IMG/VR virus record: IMGVR_UViG_3300049009_000021
Coordinates: 1 to 24,356 of that record
Strand: one strand, 5' to 3'
DNA from: a virus
Lineage: Duplodnaviria > Caudoviricetes
Length of the DNA: 24,356 nt
This document shows positions 2,264-22,970 of this stretch, in pieces. The translations under genes and the position numbers were made by a program. The notes beneath the pieces are model-generated. The model had not been told where the DNA came from and did no database searches. It worked only from the letters and a program-made list of their open reading frames with translations. Within the stretch, counting starts at the first letter, position 1. Every line of letters starts with the position of its first letter.

Positions 2264-2349
2264 TTACTTTGCCGTATTCCCCAAGAGCAGCATTTAAACC
2301 TTTTCACGATAGGAGCGAGCGGTGGGCGTGTTTAGTTGCCCACCGCCGA
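2248..2349 (+). CDS. terL: Terminase large subunit, N-terminal segment (0 frame, up to the frameshift in Walker A)
   Basis: TTG 2248 with GAGG at 2238-2241 encodes MAKRLVTLPYSPRAAFKPFHDRSERWACLVAHRR, a typical TerL N-terminus. This frame continues into unrelated residues and stops at 2530-2532. Confidence 0.8.
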
Positions 2350-3590
2350 AAGGTGCAGGCAAGACAGTCGCAGCCATTAACGACATTGTTCGGGCTGCAC
2401 TCATGTGCAAAAGCACAAATCCCCTGTTTGCTTATATTGCGCCATTCCGCAGCCAGGCTAAGTCTGTGGCTTGGGATTACCTTAAACACTTTGCCCAACC
2501 AGTTCTTGCATCAAGCAACGAGGCAGAGCTAACCATTGAGCTTATAACTGGGGGGAAGATACGCTTGTTCGGGGCTGACAACGCAGATGCTATGCGTGGC
2601 TTGGGCTTTGATGGCGTTTTCATGGACGAATATGGTGACTTCAGGCCATCAGTCTGGGGTAACGTCATTCGGCCTACATTGTCAGATAAGCAAGGTTGGG
2701 CTGTGTTCGCAGGTACGCCAAAGGGAAAGAACCAGTTTTGGCAGATATTTGAAACAGCAAAGAAAACGCCTGACGAGTGGTTTCACCTTGTCTTAAAGGC
2801 TAGTGAGTCTGGACTGCTACCTGACACAGAGCTACGGGCAGCTGCCGCACAGATCAGCGATGACCAGTTCCTACAAGAGTACGAGTGTTCGTTTGAGGCG
2901 GCAATTTTGGGCGCTTTTTATGGCGAGGACTTACGCAAGATCACAGACGCAGGGCAAGTTAGGTGTGTTGATTACGATCCGCACCTACCGACTTACACGG
3001 CTTGGGACTTAGGCTATCGTGATGACACGGCTATTTGGTGGTATCAGGTCATCCGCAACGAAATCCATATCATTGATTATTTTGCAATAAGTGGTGCAAA
3101 CATTGCAGAAATAGCTAAAATAGTCGTAGAAAAGCCGTATAAATACGCAAAACATTACCTACCGCACGATGCAAGGGCAAAAACTCTAGCAGCAGCGGGT
3201 AAGTCAGTCATTGAGCAGTTGAGTGAGTATTTAGGTATTAACAACATGGCAATTGTTCCTGACTTGTCGGTGCAAGATGGGATTCAAGCGGTGCGTCAGA
3301 TGTTGCCGCAATGTTGGTTTGACAGCGAACGAACGCACGATGGGCTAGAGGCTTTACGACAGTATCAGCGGGAATACGACGAGGACAAGAAGGCATTTAG
3401 GCAAACGCCCAGGCATGATTGGACAAGCCACCCAGCTGACGCATTTAGGATGCTAGCAATTGCTTGGAGGCTAGAGCCAAAGGTTAAGCAGCCAGATATG
3501 GTTAAGCCGTTGATTGTCGGGCCTGAGAACACAGTAACTTTGAATGATATGTGGGCAACCCACACAACAAACCGGAGTAGAAGATTATGA
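2322..3590 (+). CDS. terL: Terminase large subunit, main body (-1 frame relative to the N-terminal segment)
   Basis: AGKT (Walker A C-half), GVFMDEY (Walker B), AGTP coupling motif, AWDLGYRDDTAIW RNase H-like nuclease motif, HDWTSHPADAFR. TerL-like sequence begins at about 2355. Confidence 0.92.
   Translation: MGVFSCPPPKGAGKTVAAINDIVRAALMCKSTNPLFAYIAPFRSQAKSVAWDYLKHFAQPVLASSNEAELTIELITGGKIRLFGADNADAMRGLGFDGVFMDEYGDFRPSVWGNVIRPTLSDKQGWAVFAGTPKGKNQFWQIFETAKKTPDEWFHLVLKASESGLLPDTELRAAAAQISDDQFLQEYECSFEAAILGAFYGEDLRKITDAGQVRCVDYDPHLPTYTAWDLGYRDDTAIWWYQVIRNEIHIIDYFAISGANIAEIAKIVVEKPYKYAKHYLPHDARAKTLAAAGKSVIEQLSEYLGINNMAIVPDLSVQDGIQAVRQMLPQCWFDSERTHDGLEALRQYQREYDEDKKAFRQTPRHDWTSHPADAFRMLAIAWRLEPKVKQPDMVKPLIVGPENTVTLNDMWATHTTNRSRRL
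2347..2352 (+). promoter_or_regulatory. Candidate -1 ribosomal frameshift site CGA-AAG
   Basis: In frame with the TerL N-terminal segment. A -1 slip (AAG to AAA) enters the TerL body frame exactly. Confidence 0.45.
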
Positions 3591-3901
3591 GCGGCGTACA
3601 ACATCCTTATGAATATCAATACGAACACGTTGCAGCAAGCCAAACGGCTCAAGTATTAGGCGGTACAGGTGCAGTTGGTGATTACTTAGCCCGTTTAATT
3701 TGTACCGTGTCAACAGCTGCATCCGGTAATGTGGTTTTGTTTGATGGTGCAGGCGTTTCACATACCGTTTTGCCAGCGTTGTGCGGCACAGGCATTAACA
3801 CTTACAACATTGAGTTAGGCGCTATTTCTAAGTTTGGATCGTGGCGAATCACGACAGGCGCAGGCGTGGAAGTGTTAGCAATTGGCATCTTTAGCGCATG
3901 A
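3587..3901 (+). CDS. Hypothetical phage protein (possible small beta-rich virion protein)
   Basis: 104 aa ORF with ATGA overlaps on both sides. Confidence 0.7.
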   Translation: MSGVQHPYEYQYEHVAASQTAQVLGGTGAVGDYLARLICTVSTAASGNVVLFDGAGVSHTVLPALCGTGINTYNIELGAISKFGSWRITTGAGVEVLAIGIFSA

Positions 3902-4488
3902 TCGTAGCGTCGGTCTTGCGGTCTGGCGGTGACTTTGAACCAAAGCACGTTTACGCCTTGCAAAAGATGTGCGCCAAGTATTTGCCACCGCATGAGTTTG
4001 TGTGCCTGTCGGACGTTGAGCTAGAGTGCAAAACTATCCCTTTAATGCACGATTGGGTTGGTTGGTGGGCAAAGATGGAGTTGTTCAGGCTACCAAGTGC
4101 GCTGTACTTTGACTTAGACACGGTGCTAATTGGTGACTGTACGGCAATGATCGAGGCGGCAAAGCAGCATGATTTTGTGATTATGCGTGACGTTTATAGG
4201 GGTCAGTACAACCCGAAAGCCATGCAGTCGAGCATGATGTACTGGTCGAAACCTGTTGATTTGTACGACAAGTTTGCAGCATTGCAGATGTATACGGCGG
4301 GTGGTGACCAGGCTTACATCGAACACTTTATGCGGGACAAAGTGACATACTGGCAGGACATATGTGATGGAATTGTGAGCTTTAAGGCTGATGTGCTGCC
4401 AAACGGGTTAGACGATGCCAAGGTGGTGATCTTTCACGGTAAACCAAGACCGTGGGAACAAACAAGGATACCGTATGAAATTGGTTAA
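3898..4488 (+). CDS. GT-A fold glycosyltransferase (GT8-like)
   Basis: GWWAKMELF, LYFDLD (DxD), SSMMYW, GGDQAYI and IFHGKPRPW motifs. Confidence 0.8.
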   Translation: MIVASVLRSGGDFEPKHVYALQKMCAKYLPPHEFVCLSDVELECKTIPLMHDWVGWWAKMELFRLPSALYFDLDTVLIGDCTAMIEAAKQHDFVIMRDVYRGQYNPKAMQSSMMYWSKPVDLYDKFAALQMYTAGGDQAYIEHFMRDKVTYWQDICDGIVSFKADVLPNGLDDAKVVIFHGKPRPWEQTRIPYEIG

Positions 4489-5086
4489 AGGCTGGCAAGT
4501 TCCCGATATTGACGAGTGCTGCATTAACGCACTCTTGGTTGAGCTGCCGGACTTAAATGTGAGTTATACCCACATGAACCAGTTCCGCACAGTTATTCAA
4601 GCCGGTGGCAATATCGGTGTTTATCCCGCAACGATGGCAGGGCAATTTGAGCGTGTCATTACAGTCGAGCCTGACCTGGTCAACTATCAGGCGTTGCTGC
4701 TAAACGTTGCAGGCCACGCCAACATTGAGCATCATTGGGCTGCATTTGGTGACAAAATTGGCACAGCATCAGTCGATCACCCATACCCTGAAAACATTGG
4801 GGCGCATCAATTAAAGGCAGGCAACGATGTGCAAGTTATACCAATTGATGCTTTAGAGGTTGATGATTGCGACTTTATCCAATTAGACATTGAAGGCTAC
4901 GAGCATCTAGCCATATTGGGTGCTAAACAAACAATCAAGAGAACGTATCCAGTTATCACGCTTGAGCTGAAAGGTTTGGGCAGTCGTTATGGATACACCG
5001 ACGAGGACACAATCAACCTACTCCAAGATTGGGGCTACGAGATTGTCGGGCGGGCAAACCGTGACGTAATTTTTGCGAGATACTAA
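4475..5086 (+). CDS. FkbM-family SAM-dependent methyltransferase
   Basis: VIQAGGNIGVY SAM-binding loop, VEPD, and DFIQLDIEGYE..AILGA..TI....PVI.LE motifs. Confidence 0.88.
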   Translation: MKLVKGWQVPDIDECCINALLVELPDLNVSYTHMNQFRTVIQAGGNIGVYPATMAGQFERVITVEPDLVNYQALLLNVAGHANIEHHWAAFGDKIGTASVDHPYPENIGAHQLKAGNDVQVIPIDALEVDDCDFIQLDIEGYEHLAILGAKQTIKRTYPVITLELKGLGSRYGYTDEDTINLLQDWGYEIVGRANRDVIFARY

Positions 5087-10784: not shown

Positions 10785-11032
10785 ATGGCATTTGCCAATA
10801 GCTCGATCAGCGACATCATTGCGACTAACATTCAAAGCCGCACCGGTGAACTTGCTGACAACGTAACAAACAACAACGCTTTACTGCGCCGTTTGAAAGA
10901 ACGTGGCAACGTAAAGACGTTTTCTGGCGGTAACGTAATTTTGCAAGAAATTATGTACCAGGATGCCGCAACCGACAATACTAATAGCTATTCAGGCTAT
11001 GAAGTTTTGAACGTTTCGCAAAACAGTCCCAT
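10785..11032 (+). CDS. Major capsid protein, exon 1
   Basis: RBS GGAG. MAFANSSISDIIATNIQSRTGELADNVTNNNALLRRLKERGNVKTFSGG...YSGYEVLNVSQNSPI. The frame runs into the intron and stops at TAG 11052-11054. Confidence 0.88.
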
Positions 11033-11292
11033 TGACGAATTAGTGGCTTTGTAGAGAAATCTGCATCGAAAAACTTTGTGAATTCGGTGAAACTCTGACC
11101 ATTAAGTTGAAGACAATACCGAGCCAAGCCCAGAGATGGGAAGGTGTAACGACTAGGGTGTGACTACCCGTAGAGCCAAGTGGCTCGAAGTGCAAAGAAC
11201 CCTACGGGGTTGTGAGATAGTCTGCTCTGCATAGAAATATGCAGCAGTCCGAAAGGGCGGCAAGGGATTAACGAAACCTTGTGAACATTTGG
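11033..11292 (+). ncRNA. Group I self-splicing intron, subgroup IA2-like, ORF-less (260 nt)
   Basis: P1 with U11032.G11043 wobble. P3 CUUUGUG (11074-80) with UGCAAAG (11191-97). P4 UUCGGU with ACCGAG. P7 GACUA (11151-55) with UAGUC (11218-22). P2, P6a, P7.1, P7.2, P8, P9, P9.1 and P9.2 hairpins. Terminal G11292. Excision restores the reading frame. Confidence 0.93.
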
Positions 11293-19407: not shown

Positions 19408-20850
19408 ATGGCTACTGCTATGCCAACAACGCAAGGTTATCGTGCGCCAGGCCCGTATGATGAGGATTACCGTTCAATTGCTCGTCGTGAGCAAATGGCG
19501 CAAATTTTGCAACAGCAAGCATTTCAGCCAATTGAAGTTGGATCGTATCAAGGTATTCAAGCGCCTATTTCTCCTATCTCCGGAATTGCTAAAATTCTGC
19601 AAGGCTATCTTGCAGGGCAGCAAATGGACAAAGCTGACGAAGGCCGACAAGATTTACTATATAGAGCAGAAAATGCTGATCGTGCTTTGGTTGGGTTGCC
19701 ACCTGTTGAAAGAACAAGACCACAACAATTAGCTCAAGCGTTACAGCAACCAGCGGCTACAACATATGGTGAAGGTGCGCCACCAACAAGTATGTCACCA
19801 ACGGGTATGCCACAAACAAGTATGCCATCAACAGGTGTTCCGCAGGCTCAAGTAATGCCAGTTGCTCAATCATTCCCGATTGGGCCATCGGGCGCATACC
19901 AAAACTTGCCACCAAATCAAGAAATTGATGCAGTGCCGCAAGCAGCGCCAGTTCAGGGTATGCCAACGCAAGGCGTACCGACTCAAGGTGTAGCGCCAAA
20001 AGGTCAATTTACACCACCAGGCGGCGGGTCACCATTGCCATCTGTTACGGGTGATCCTGTAAAAGATTTGGCATTGCTTAAACAATTTAGAGGCGATACA
20101 GCTGCATACGTTAAATTTGCTTATGAACAAAATAAACCACAAGTGGTGGCTAAAGGTGGATCATTATTTACCAATCAAGGAAAATTGATCGTTGGTACGC
20201 CTGATGAAAGCGGCAATGTAACGGTTCAACTTCCTGATGGCACTTTCCGTAGGGAAAAAGTTGCTGGCGCAGCCGAACTAACACGAGGTGAAGCGTTTAC
20301 AAAAGAATATGCAACTGAAGGCGCAAAAGCAACAGTAGCACGAGATACTACGCATTTTGGTCTAGCTGAATCTGCACCACAAAACATTGAAAAAGCTAAT
20401 CGTATTATTGATTTAGTTGAATCTGGTGCATTAACTGGGACGGCAGCAGAAAGAAAATTGCAAATTGCTCGTTTGTTTAACATTACGGGTAACGGGCCAG
20501 AAGAAACAATTAAAAAGACTGAATTGTTAATTTCTGGTCTTGGTCAAAACGTGCTTGATAATATTAAAGCGTCTGGCCTTGGTACTGGACAAGGATTTAC
20601 CGACTCTGACCGAGAATTTTTAAGAAATGTGGTTGGTGGGTCAATTGAACTTAATGCAAAAACTCTTACTGAATTGGCTAGATTGCAAAAACTATCTAAT
20701 CAACGTAACGTTGAAAAATGGAACAAACGGGTTGGTGAAATTGATCCAAACGTTAGAAAAGACATGGGTTATAAACCTGTGGAACTTGGCAACACTTACA
20801 GTCAAAGCGAAATTCGTGCTGAATTGAAACGCAGAGGATTGACTCAATAA
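19408..20850 (+). CDS. Putative internal virion/ejection protein
   Basis: 480 aa with a Pro/Gln/Thr low-complexity middle and a G.GFTDSDREFL C-terminal motif. Confidence 0.6.
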   Translation: MATAMPTTQGYRAPGPYDEDYRSIARREQMAQILQQQAFQPIEVGSYQGIQAPISPISGIAKILQGYLAGQQMDKADEGRQDLLYRAENADRALVGLPPVERTRPQQLAQALQQPAATTYGEGAPPTSMSPTGMPQTSMPSTGVPQAQVMPVAQSFPIGPSGAYQNLPPNQEIDAVPQAAPVQGMPTQGVPTQGVAPKGQFTPPGGGSPLPSVTGDPVKDLALLKQFRGDTAAYVKFAYEQNKPQVVAKGGSLFTNQGKLIVGTPDESGNVTVQLPDGTFRREKVAGAAELTRGEAFTKEYATEGAKATVARDTTHFGLAESAPQNIEKANRIIDLVESGALTGTAAERKLQIARLFNITGNGPEETIKKTELLISGLGQNVLDNIKASGLGTGQGFTDSDREFLRNVVGGSIELNAKTLTELARLQKLSNQRNVEKWNKRVGEIDPNVRKDMGYKPVELGNTYSQSEIRAELKRRGLTQ

Positions 20851-22970
20851 TGGCAAACATTGAACAATTTTCGTCGCAATACGGGCCTTTAGCCGGTAAA
20901 GTTGGCAGCGAACTGGGCGTAAGCCCTGATTTGTTATTAGGTCAATGGGGATTGGAAACGGGTTGGGGAAAAGGAATTATCCCTGGCACTAACAATCTCG
21001 GCAACATTATGGATTTTTCAGGCGGCGGTGTGGCTGCTGTTGATAACTACTTAGGTCGTACTGATAAATATCGTGCCTTTGAAACTCCAGAAGCATTTGG
21101 GGCGCATTTTGTAGATTTGATTAAGCGCAAATACCCAAACGTTGTAGGTGCGGGTGACGATGCTGTTAAGTTTGCAACAGCCTTGAAAGAAGGTGGTTAC
21201 GCAGAACATCCTGAATATATCAACTCATTAGTCAACACAATTCAATCAGTTAGAAAACAACCAAATTCTGCAAACTTAGTAGCAACCGCAACCACATCAG
21301 ACGCAAATCCAGTAGGAATATCGTCAATGAGTAACGAGCAATTGCTTAAACTTGCAACACCATCTGCGGCTAAAGGATTGGAAGGGTTAAGCAACGAAGA
21401 ATTATTAGGCATGGCAAAAGGTCAGCAGCCATCTGCACAAGCGCCACAAGGCCCAATGAAAGCCGGTGACGTTGCGTTTCAAGCTATCACAAACATTCCG
21501 TCAAGTGCAGCAAAGTTTGCAGGTGATATTTACCAAGCGGTAACTAATCCTGTTGAAACGGTTAAAAGCATTGGAATGTTGGGTGCTGGCGCAATTAAAA
21601 ATGCCTTGCCTAAGTCTGTTACAGATTTTATTACCTCAATCAGTAGCGAACCTGGTCAGATTGACAAAGCCGTTGAAATGGCTAATGCCGTGGGTGGCGA
21701 ATATGCTAAAAAATACGGCTCTCTTGAAGGGTTTAAGACAGCAATTGCAACTGATCCTGTAGGAACGGCAGCAGATATTTCTATGCTGTTTACTGGCGGC
21801 GGCTCGTTAGTAGGTAAATTGCCTGGCATGGTGGGTCGTGCCGGTGAAACGGTTGCTAACGTTGGTCGTGCAATTGACCCTTTAAATATTGCAGCCAAAG
21901 CCGTTACAAAGCCTTTGCAATTAGCAGAAATGCTTGCCACGCCTGCCGTTGGATTGGCAACTGGTGCAGGCGCTGAATCTATCCGTGAAGCTGCAAGAGC
22001 AGGTGCAGCTGGTGGCGCAAAGGCAGAAGCATTTTTAGGTCAATTGCGTGGTAATGCGCCAATTGAAAACGTGGTTAACACGGCAAAAGAAGCTGTTGCA
22101 GAGCTGTACAGAAACAAGTCAGATGCTTACAAATCTGGTATGACTGGCGTAACACAAAACAGGACATTGCTTGATTTTGCGCCAATTGACCAAGCAATTA
22201 TTAACGCTGAAAAAGTTGGCAGTTTTAATGGCGTTGTGATTCGTGGTAACGCAGCAAGTGCTTTAAAAGAAATTAAAGATAAAGTTGCTGAATTTAAAGC
22301 AGGCAATCCTGCTGTATTTAGAACGGTTGAAGGTTTTGATAAATTAAAACAAGCCATTGGCGATATTCAACAAGCGTTGCCTTATGGAACGCCTGCTCGT
22401 AAAGTTGCAGACGATTTGTATAACTCAGTAAAAAACGAAATTACGAAGCAAGCACCTGATTACGCAAAAGTAATGGGCGATTACGAGCAAGCAAGTGCCT
22501 TGCTCAAAGACATTGAAGGATCGTTGTCACTAGGCAAAAAAGCCAATATCGATACGTCGGTTCGTAAGTTGCAATCAATTTTGCGTAACAATGCAAATAC
22601 TAATTACGGCAGACGGGTTGATTTAGGTCGGCAATTAGAGGCTACGGGTGTGCCAGGCGCTGACACATTGTTTCCACAATTAGCCGGTCAAATGCTTAGT
22701 TCGCCCACGCCAAGAGGGATTCAAGGTGCTACAAGTGTTTTAGGTGGAGCTACTGCATATGCAACTAATCCAGCATTGTTGCCAGGTTTAGTATTAACTT
22801 CGCCACGATTAGTCGGCGAGGCGGCATATTACGGTGGTAAAGCAGGCGGTGCAGCACAACGAGTGGCTGAGGCGTTAAAGTCATACACAGGAAAATCACC
22901 AATTGACCCTTATACGTTAAGGATGTTGGCAGCTAAATTAGGGCAAATTCAGCCCGAAGAACAGAGGTAA
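20850..22970 (+). CDS. Putative ejection protein with N-terminal GH73/FlgJ-like peptidoglycan hydrolase domain
   Basis: GQWGLETGWG, NNLGNI, YRAFET and GGYAEHPEY motifs in the first ~135 aa, followed by a long Ala/Gly-rich helical region. Confidence 0.75.
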   Translation: MANIEQFSSQYGPLAGKVGSELGVSPDLLLGQWGLETGWGKGIIPGTNNLGNIMDFSGGGVAAVDNYLGRTDKYRAFETPEAFGAHFVDLIKRKYPNVVGAGDDAVKFATALKEGGYAEHPEYINSLVNTIQSVRKQPNSANLVATATTSDANPVGISSMSNEQLLKLATPSAAKGLEGLSNEELLGMAKGQQPSAQAPQGPMKAGDVAFQAITNIPSSAAKFAGDIYQAVTNPVETVKSIGMLGAGAIKNALPKSVTDFITSISSEPGQIDKAVEMANAVGGEYAKKYGSLEGFKTAIATDPVGTAADISMLFTGGGSLVGKLPGMVGRAGETVANVGRAIDPLNIAAKAVTKPLQLAEMLATPAVGLATGAGAESIREAARAGAAGGAKAEAFLGQLRGNAPIENVVNTAKEAVAELYRNKSDAYKSGMTGVTQNRTLLDFAPIDQAIINAEKVGSFNGVVIRGNAASALKEIKDKVAEFKAGNPAVFRTVEGFDKLKQAIGDIQQALPYGTPARKVADDLYNSVKNEITKQAPDYAKVMGDYEQASALLKDIEGSLSLGKKANIDTSVRKLQSILRNNANTNYGRRVDLGRQLEATGVPGADTLFPQLAGQMLSSPTPRGIQGATSVLGGATAYATNPALLPGLVLTSPRLVGEAAYYGGKAGGAAQRVAEALKSYTGKSPIDPYTLRMLAAKLGQIQPEEQR

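Follow-up and report, generated by a model that had tools for sequence, protein, structure and literature searches.

How does a tailed phage make a full-length large terminase subunit (TerL) when five extra nucleotides (nt) break the reading frame of its gene inside the Walker A motif? The question is raised by a 24,356-nt stretch of viral DNA (Duplodnaviria; Caudoviricetes; IMG/VR record IMGVR_UViG_3300049009_000021, positions 1 to 24,356), here called the window, a 24-kb record which carries a run of phage head and tail genes and has relatives in freshwater and lake sequencing runs. Our answer is that the insert probably belongs to a mobile cassette combining an HNH endonuclease gene with a ribosomal bypass element, such that ribosomes would hop over the insert and deliver a normal TerL of 445 residues with the loop AHRR-AGKT.

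An interrupted terL gene

The break lies at 2338-2366, where GCC CAC CGC CGA (2338-2349) and GCA GGC AAG ACA (2355-2366) flank the coding gap AAGGT (2350-2354). The frame upstream of the gap, terL open reading frame 1 (ORF1, 2248-2349), comprises 34 codons from a likely TTG start, ends in WACLVAHRR and aligns with residues 1-34 of uninterrupted relatives. The frame downstream (ORF2, 2355-3590) comprises 411 codons, begins with AGKT, encodes the remaining ATPase part and the nuclease domain, matches both terminase domains (Terminase_6N and 6C) as well as phrog_2, and is 99% identical to uninterrupted relatives. These elements, and the signals, cassette, HNH gene and putative small terminase gene described below, all lie on the plus strand. 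Without recoding, translation would continue out of frame to a stop at 2532 and yield 94 residues; a -1 slip would yield 447, and removal of the 5 nt yields 445, which equals both the length of TerL in the uninterrupted relative L006 and the sum of the window's two ORFs. The initial annotation of this DNA had reported the split motif and these three lengths, and both hold. An independently assembled contig of run X1, which may be the window's own source run, covers 1707-2387 with 0 differences and 0 gaps, and the AAGGT insert is identical in three further viral contigs; the insert is therefore not an assembly slip, a doubt that had been raised alongside.

A family of short inserts at one Walker A site

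A search of relatives for the same insertion, suggested as a check in the initial annotation, uncovered many more cases. Among the 80 closest terL loci the junction is covered in 78, five of which have a 5-nt insert (AAGGT in two, AGGGT in three) and 73 of which are plain. A pattern permitting 1-30 extra bases returned 49 viral contigs with gaps of 4, 5 and 7 nt (30, 13 and 6, respectively), and a hairpin-anchored pattern returned 76 with gaps of 4, 5, 6 and 7 nt (53, 16, 1 and 6). Metagenome contigs (n = 35, many with the same sequences) added one 6-nt gap, CGA TAA CGG (L314); the scan that yielded them covered 28 of 64 parts and gave 120 loci, 85 of which were dropped, 83 having no TerL or HNH match and two (L246 and L266) being plain or unrelated motifs out of register. 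With the patterns open to 1-30 nt there was no gap of 1, 2 or 3 nt and none longer than 7 nt; beyond 30 nt, coverage is that of 54 hairpin-only matches, all of which reach AGKT within 7 nt. In genome contigs no gap allele was found, one pattern giving 0 matches and another three, namely two chance matches to ABC-ATPase Walker A motifs and one plain terL.

After identical junctions had been merged, 231 distinct ones were compared, 61 with a gap (the window included) and 170 plain. Gap lengths among the 61 are 4 nt in 35, 5 nt in 17, 6 nt in one and 7 nt in eight; six of the 61 are known only through a pattern that requires CAC-CG, and the others came from patterns that leave those positions free. 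More than 12 different gap sequences occupy the one site in contigs from many samples, and each is accompanied by linked synonymous changes upstream; a first set comprised 11 gap sequences, AAGGT among them, to which the later alleles added more. The carrier TerLs are 44%-99% identical to that of the window. Six alleles found later with the hairpin-anchored pattern open their gaps with TAG, TAA and AGG (two each), and 6-nt gaps opening with an in-frame TAA are now two (L314 and L508). Judged from these junctions, the inserts are a recurrent family of differing lengths and letters at a single Walker A site, and about 5% of the terL genes of this freshwater group would carry one (49 against roughly 1000 stretches matching the gapless version of the pattern, 120 of which were fetched).

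A more distant case may have arisen independently. In L593, a complete 42-kb genome whose TerL is 38% identical and of the HRR-FGKT type, a 6-nt insert, AGG TGA, occupies the same Walker A site (reverse strand, about 1400-1420), and a more distant HNH gene overlaps the start of terL. This single case was the one real match of an HRR-FGKT pattern, 118 of whose 120 loci had no TerL match and another of which, L586, was a chance match.

Upstream signals that accompany the gap

Two elements in the coding sequence of ORF1 set the gap alleles apart. The first is an internal AGGAG (2311-2315) resembling a Shine-Dalgarno (SD) sequence, the GGAG core of which stands 4 nt before a stem; the second is that stem, a 10-bp hairpin at 2319-2346 (GCGGUGGGCG / UGCCCACCGC, with an 8-nt loop), which is encoded in the codons for R-W-A and A-H-R and the 3' arm of which ends in the codon preceding the predicted take-off codon. 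The hairpin can be extended to 2316-2348 (-23.3 kcal/mol, z -6.0 in a 101-nt fold) and is the main structure at the site, which the initial annotation overlooked. The smaller CGCC-GAAA-GGUG hairpin that it had drawn across the insert does fold in a 29-nt piece (-9.7 kcal/mol), but in the 101-nt fold it is displaced by the 2316-2348 hairpin, and it is not conserved; the downstream stem that it had pointed to lies in a region no more structured than shuffled sequence (z -1.5). Local folds across the gap vary between alleles, with energies between -3.0 and -11.7 kcal/mol.

The upstream pair, by comparison, follows the gap closely. A complete 8-bp stem core ending one codon before the gap occurs in 61/61 gap and 13/170 plain junctions, and an SD-like core (GGAG, GAGG or AGGG) 3-5 nt before the stem in 61/61 and 6/170, with GGAG exactly 4 nt from the stem in 56 of the 61 gap junctions; among the six later alleles the SD core is present in five. 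When the hairpin alone was used as the query, 49 of 54 loci had a gap and five were plain, only one of those five also having the SD core. In a FastTree phylogeny built from 174 C-terminal parts of TerL, the stem and SD pair tracks the gap in 17/17 independent pairs. Synonymous choice is likewise frozen in carriers: the Arg codon before the Trp is CGG in 50/50 haplotypes, whereas the commonest codon at that position in plain alleles accounts for 52/168. Two plain alleles retain parts of this arrangement: L043, on a contig shared with L153, has the complete SD and hairpin with no gap and no HNH gene and is likely a revertant or recombinant, and L033 retains the SD element only.

Take-off codon, A-site codon and landing triplet

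The gap borders are also constrained. The predicted take-off codon in the window is CGA (2347-2349), which encodes the second Arg of AHRR, and the last codon before the gap in the 61 junctions is CGA in 31, CGC in 23 and CGT in seven; CGG, AGA and AGG, present at this position in 42/170 plain junctions, occur there in 0/61 gap junctions. CGA, CGC and CGT can all be read by one tRNA-Arg with anticodon ICG. The first gap codon is AGG in 39, TAG in eight, AAA in five, AAG in four, AGA in three and TAA in two, such that a stop (10), or AGG or AGA (42), directly follows the Arg codon in 52/61. At the other end, the last gap triplet, GGT at 2352-2354 in the window and the predicted landing site there, is GGT in 44, AGT in eight, CGT in seven, and AGC and CGG in one each, with a middle G in 61/61 and in 6/6 of the later alleles. 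In 21/21 allele contexts it offers ICG two or three pairs, and the preceding triplet offers none or one.

The window's own allele, in which AAG (2350-2352) is the first gap codon, is among the least typical of the family. Of two further ideas about the site, AGG as a hungry codon is unsupported by phage codon usage and would rest on host tRNA supply, and a conserved ORF starting from the GTG at the gap end was set aside, its frame or length not being conserved (ORF1-frame tails of 0-89 codons).

Evidence that the split gene is functional

The initial annotation had allowed for a dead allele, and the evidence runs counter to this. Within the sequence covered, ORF2 is free of premature stops in all 61 carriers. 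The ratio of nonsynonymous to synonymous substitution rates (dN/dS) over 40 carrier pairs with the same gap has a median of 0.057 and a maximum of 0.29, and for the window's ORF2 against its three closest same-gap relatives it is 0.03-0.05. The split gene is the sole terL in 4/4 carrier genomes that are at least 96% complete, and two more complete genomes (2/2; L508, rated 100% complete, and L593) have a single terL with an in-frame TAA or TGA. These comparisons show terL to be under purifying selection, and we take the insert to be recoded rather than dead.

What kind of protein results can be judged from homologues. Among 150 representatives of distant clusters, the loop length is constant in 138 of 139 scorable TerLs, and the lone exception is a fragment that matches outside Walker A. 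A PDB search aligned HRRAGKT without gaps to GRQSGKS of P74-26, a stretch that falls below significance, and a P-loop arginine is described as essential in the D6E terminase (PMC5727402), its equivalent here being one or the other Arg of HRR. The TerL product most likely has the canonical loop AHRR-AGKT, and the insert would therefore be skipped whole. Several TerL homologues (P0020, P0038, P0045, P0071 and P0078 among them) reach 730-1125 residues and match in two or three separate stretches; inteins or fused domains are thereby suggested within this family.

A probable mobile HNH cassette

Directly upstream of the window's terL lies a free-standing HNH endonuclease gene (1775-2263, 162 residues) that is open and contains the motif HRCDNPYCVNPEHL; it matches Pfam HNH_3 above the cut-off (E 4e-11) and HNH families of PHROG. 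Before it stands a stranded relic of the original terL start, GTG GCA AGA CGG GAG (VARRE, 1755-1769): the same letters begin terL in the plain relatives L002, L006 and L009 and in the carriers L084 and L124, which have no HNH gene, and the new terL start of the window lies 3' of them. Contigs with the plain allele diverge from the window at 1768 and rejoin it at 2358 (X24 and X3) or 2364 (X1), with 91 letters between in X24. The cassette thus extends over approximately 1769-2357 and comprises the HNH gene, a replacement 5' end of terL, the signals and the gap, 589 nt in place of 91.

The tie between insert and nuclease that the initial annotation proposed as a form of immunity extends beyond the window. 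Among junctions for which 700 nt or more of upstream DNA is available, a limit that leaves out five gap and 38 plain ones, an HNH homologue adjoins 30/56 gap alleles against 1/132 plain alleles, a distribution that would fit immunity; four of the six later alleles likewise have the gene. The single plain allele with an HNH gene directly upstream of terL, L373, has a more distant HNH (42%), no stem and no gap. In ungapped comparison, the 52 nt before the gap show 81-90% identity to those of carriers whose downstream DNA is less than 70% identical, but no more than 63-80% to those of plain alleles that exceed 85% identity downstream. Gap alleles are also scattered across the TerL tree. In L235 a duplicated terL 5' end, left in front of the HNH gene some 600-680 nt ahead of the gap, spans the Walker A codons (HRR, four extra bases, CGKT, then a stop); this one case is a hint of nuclease action at Walker A. 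The window's HNH protein is likely the homing nuclease of the cassette.

A proposed route of bypass and the evidence against it

The reading that we consider probable can be set out as follows. Peptidyl-tRNA-Arg would sit on CGA with a stop or a slower codon, AAG in the window, in the A site; GGAG would pair with 16S rRNA while the hairpin refolds behind the P site; and these two movements together would draw the message out and displace the paused ribosome 4-7 nt forward. The tRNA would then re-pair on the last gap triplet, NGN, at two or three of three positions, and decoding would restart at GCN (Ala). The insert would spoil the HNH target in the conserved Walker A coding sequence and leave the protein unchanged, and nuclease, new 5' end and gap would spread jointly by homing, the gap often outlasting the nuclease.

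Several observations weigh against this account. With respect to the codons, a full match between landing and take-off (CGT) occurs in only 7/61, the first position being G or A in 53; the window's A-site codon AAG is neither a stop nor rare (17 per 1000 codons), and five more alleles have AAA; and AGG, at 6 per 1000 in the window and about 10 per 1000 in terL, is used within ORF1 too. With respect to the signals, covariation in the stem is weak (7/10 pairs are invariant and two changed on both sides), its score was matched by 19/500 shuffles of 13 hand-picked sequences, L503 has AGGA only instead of the SD core, and L593 has neither SD core nor family stem, a different hairpin ending about 14 nt upstream. 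The shared signal letters are also explained by common descent of the cassette; the better argument for the signals is that they are kept while neighbouring codons, gap and protein diverge. With respect to the cassette, 26/56 gap alleles have no adjacent HNH gene, the HNH link is modest when restricted to independent pairs (6.7 vs 0 of 16, median p 0.016), and the 27 changes of gap/plain state on the tree of 174 TerL proteins could reflect movement or repeated loss, which that tree cannot separate as gain from loss.

A variant is conceivable, if rather less than evenly poised: a minimal hop set by distance, in which the SD element and hairpin, both encoded through synonymous codon choice, would move the ribosome 4-7 nt onward to a poorly matched triplet, no stop being needed.

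Alternative explanations

Among the alternatives to a hop over the whole insert, the one that survives best, though we regard it as unlikely, is a frameshift that keeps some of the inserted bases in a longer loop that still works, either by a -1 shift at CGA-AAG (AHRR-KG-AGKT), as the initial annotation favoured, or by decoding of the last triplet (AHRR-G/S/R-AGKT). CGA-AAG is a published -1 site, that of Bacillus subtilis cdd and IS1222, in the part of PMC5009743 that treats it; at 4-nt gaps a +1 move would add one small residue only, G or S; and first-position landing mismatches are not accounted for by re-pairing of the tRNA. The comparison of alleles speaks against such a shift at several levels. 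AAG follows the Arg codon in 4/61 only, sister alleles that share the upstream cassette have CGA-AGG instead, and CGAAAG occurs five times in the window where 10.4 are expected, the hexamer alone being therefore no more than chance. The -1 relation holds in 17/61, 43/61 gaps (those of 4 or 7 nt) need the opposite shift, and those 6-nt gaps that open with an in-frame TAA leave the two frames in register and contain a stop that no shift would cure. The products would vary by allele (G, S, KG, QG, LS, IG, NR, DS and DR), the gap searches gave no 3-nt in-frame insert, RRKGAGKT would lengthen the loop that is otherwise so constant, and in the extra-residue version the P-site tRNA would find none or one pair. 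What is possible at the window allele is a small incidental -1 slip, the by-product of which is likely inactive.

Removal of the insert from the RNA has less in its favour and seems improbable to us. It would make the gap a micro-intron of 4-7 nt, excised either by an enzyme of host or phage or by a trans-acting ribozyme, with the hairpin as guide and ordinary translation thereafter. Every gap can be written CG/...G/N with G as the last base removed, as at a group I 3' splice site, a group I intron is present elsewhere in the window's phage, and the hairpin could mark a protein-binding site. The upstream exons of group I introns usually end in U, and here the corresponding base is G or C. RNA removal is weakened because the fixed-spacing SD-like core and the stops or AGG right after the Arg codon are features of translation and because a group I intron is found in 0/4 near-complete carrier genomes. 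No Rfam match was found at the gap site, and the RNA runs X23 and X24 contain only other strains or the plain allele there. Transcriptional slippage was also considered and rejected, there being no homopolymer run at the site.

Very unlikely, in our estimation, is the view that gap alleles are dead or nearly so, selfish passengers packaged by the terminase of a co-infecting plain phage. Plain and gap alleles do occur in one run at similar depth (25.6 and 22.7 in X1), gap alleles are the minority already described, and a low dN/dS could partly predate arrival of the cassette. The open ORF2 in all carriers and the dN/dS values given above oppose this, however, as do the retention of hairpin and SD across TerLs that are 44-99% identical and the persistence and diversification of the gap in 26 alleles without the nuclease.

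Still less credible is a TerL in two pieces, or one restarted at GTG 2322, six bases after AGGAG, with a product beginning MGVFSCPPPKGAGKT...; in the window, as in other 5-nt alleles, this GTG shares the frame of ORF2 and is suitably placed relative to AGGAG, but it is out of frame in the 4-, 6- and 7-nt alleles and occluded by the stem, alleles of the L086 and L314 types lack any in-frame upstream start, and the product would be without the conserved HRR and the first 34 residues. An assembly or sequencing artefact can be dismissed as next to impossible, even though all sources are metagenome contigs, given over a dozen gap sequences in many samples with their linked synonymous changes and a letter-identical independent assembly.

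Genomic surroundings

Immediately upstream of the HNH gene, an ORF at 1369-1773 with an ATG at 1474 encodes, by position, a putative small terminase (1474-1773), the sole PHROG match of which is phrog_15261 (function unknown) and which has no Pfam match. At the left end (23-636) are genes for a RecA-dependent nuclease (PF16786) and RusA (PF05866); between terL and portal (3898-5086) are two genes resembling, by eye, a glycosyltransferase and an FkbM-type methyltransferase; and 20850-22970 encodes a likely virion ejection protein of 706 residues that has a glucosaminidase domain at its N terminus. The group I intron (Rfam RF00028, 67 bits, 11021-11244; by eye about 11033-11292) has no internal ORF and splits the major head protein gene, both flanks of which match phrog_9953; in carrier record G005, too, a group I intron lies about as far from terL. 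No tRNA gene was found in the window. The closest TerL relatives in cultured phages, Rhodoferax phage P26218 and HTVC010P-like phages, are 38-44% identical, and no cultured phage TerL is closer than 44% to that of the window.

Implications

Few systems of programmed bypassing are known, and the force behind the forward movement is disputed; pairing of the mRNA as it leaves the ribosome has been proposed as a driver (bioRxiv 2024.12.09.627546). More than 60 alleles here vary gap length, A-site codon and landing triplet with SD and hairpin fixed, and the proposed driver is therefore isolated in about 45 nt and directly testable. If the hop set by distance described above is true, a 40-nt module could erase almost any small insert, homing nucleases could settle in the best-conserved motif of an essential gene, and the natural alleles would offer a ready test of the force that drives bypass. 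A hop over 4-7 nt would rank among the shortest natural hops described, and our searches of the open-licence literature returned no report of a family of 4-7 nt Walker A gaps. For annotation, the consequence would be that some 5% of the terL genes in this abundant freshwater group are called truncated or pseudogenes.

Comparison with known systems

Several recoding systems invite comparison. With cdd and IS1222 the window allele shares the hexamer CGA-AAG (2347-2352), but, as far as the published description consulted goes, the likeness ends there: the hexamer is absent from 57/61 junctions, cannot serve 4-, 6- or 7-nt gaps and would alter the catalytic loop. The byps elements of Magnusiomyces mitochondria are similar, in the accounts drawn on here, in that many short inserts are skipped in translation with a loose match between take-off and landing; they differ in being read by mitochondrial ribosomes. 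The byps inserts are also longer than the 4-7 nt gaps.

Closer in target is phage phiHau3, in which passages of PMC10732093 describe a 10-nt non-coding block in terL, with one of 7 nt in an S. catenulae prophage, and bypass demonstrated in E. coli, where a UAA variant was examined by mass spectrometry. The same passages propose a 5' stem-loop and an SD sequence as stimulators and consider the junction too conserved for extra residues. As in phiHau3 and StrepC.1/S. catenulae, so far as those passages describe them, a short block interrupts the large-terminase gene and a codon that may be slow follows take-off. If the phiHau3 g6/g7 junction RLKGWG/KD is taken as the Walker A loop, as we infer, then both have a short block in an ATPase motif (7-10 nt there, 4-7 nt here) with a 5' stem-loop and SD, which are proposed for phiHau3 and present in 61/61 gap junctions here. 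The differences are several. UUA opens the phiHau3 block and the host is Streptomyces, and no gap here begins with TTA in frame; the gaps here are 4-7 nt long, their first codon is a stop, AGG, AGA, AAA or AAG, and take-off is from an Arg codon; there are dozens of alleles here against the three genes described, in a TerL of another family; and the gap here is linked to HNH, a link that the PMC10732093 passages do not report for Hau3.

Closer in its mobility is T4 gene 60, with its 50-nt bypass and MobA homing cassette (described in parts of bioRxiv 2022.08.31.505936). Common to both, on that description, are a gap that separates the coding sequences for two parts of a conserved protein, an HNH gene in the 5' part of an essential gene with a replacement N-terminus and the gap shortly downstream, the occurrence of the gap with the nuclease and often after its loss, spread between lineages, and an SD-like element with stem-loops; a stop or AGG after take-off is shared by many of the alleles here, though the window has AAG. 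The gap here is a tenth as long, the target is terL and not a topoisomerase, and hairpin and SD lie upstream within the ORF1 coding sequence rather than in the gap. T4-type bypass cassettes keep matched take-off and landing codons, again according to parts of bioRxiv 2022.08.31.505936, whereas the landing triplet here is mostly unmatched (CGA to GGT in the window) and no nascent-peptide signal was identified at these junctions. By analogy, then, the gap family would work like phiHau3 and T4 gene 60 while being a member of neither, having no UUA, no matched codons and no gap hairpin, and it would connect these two known phage examples, phiHau3 with its short terminase gap and T4 with its nuclease cassette.

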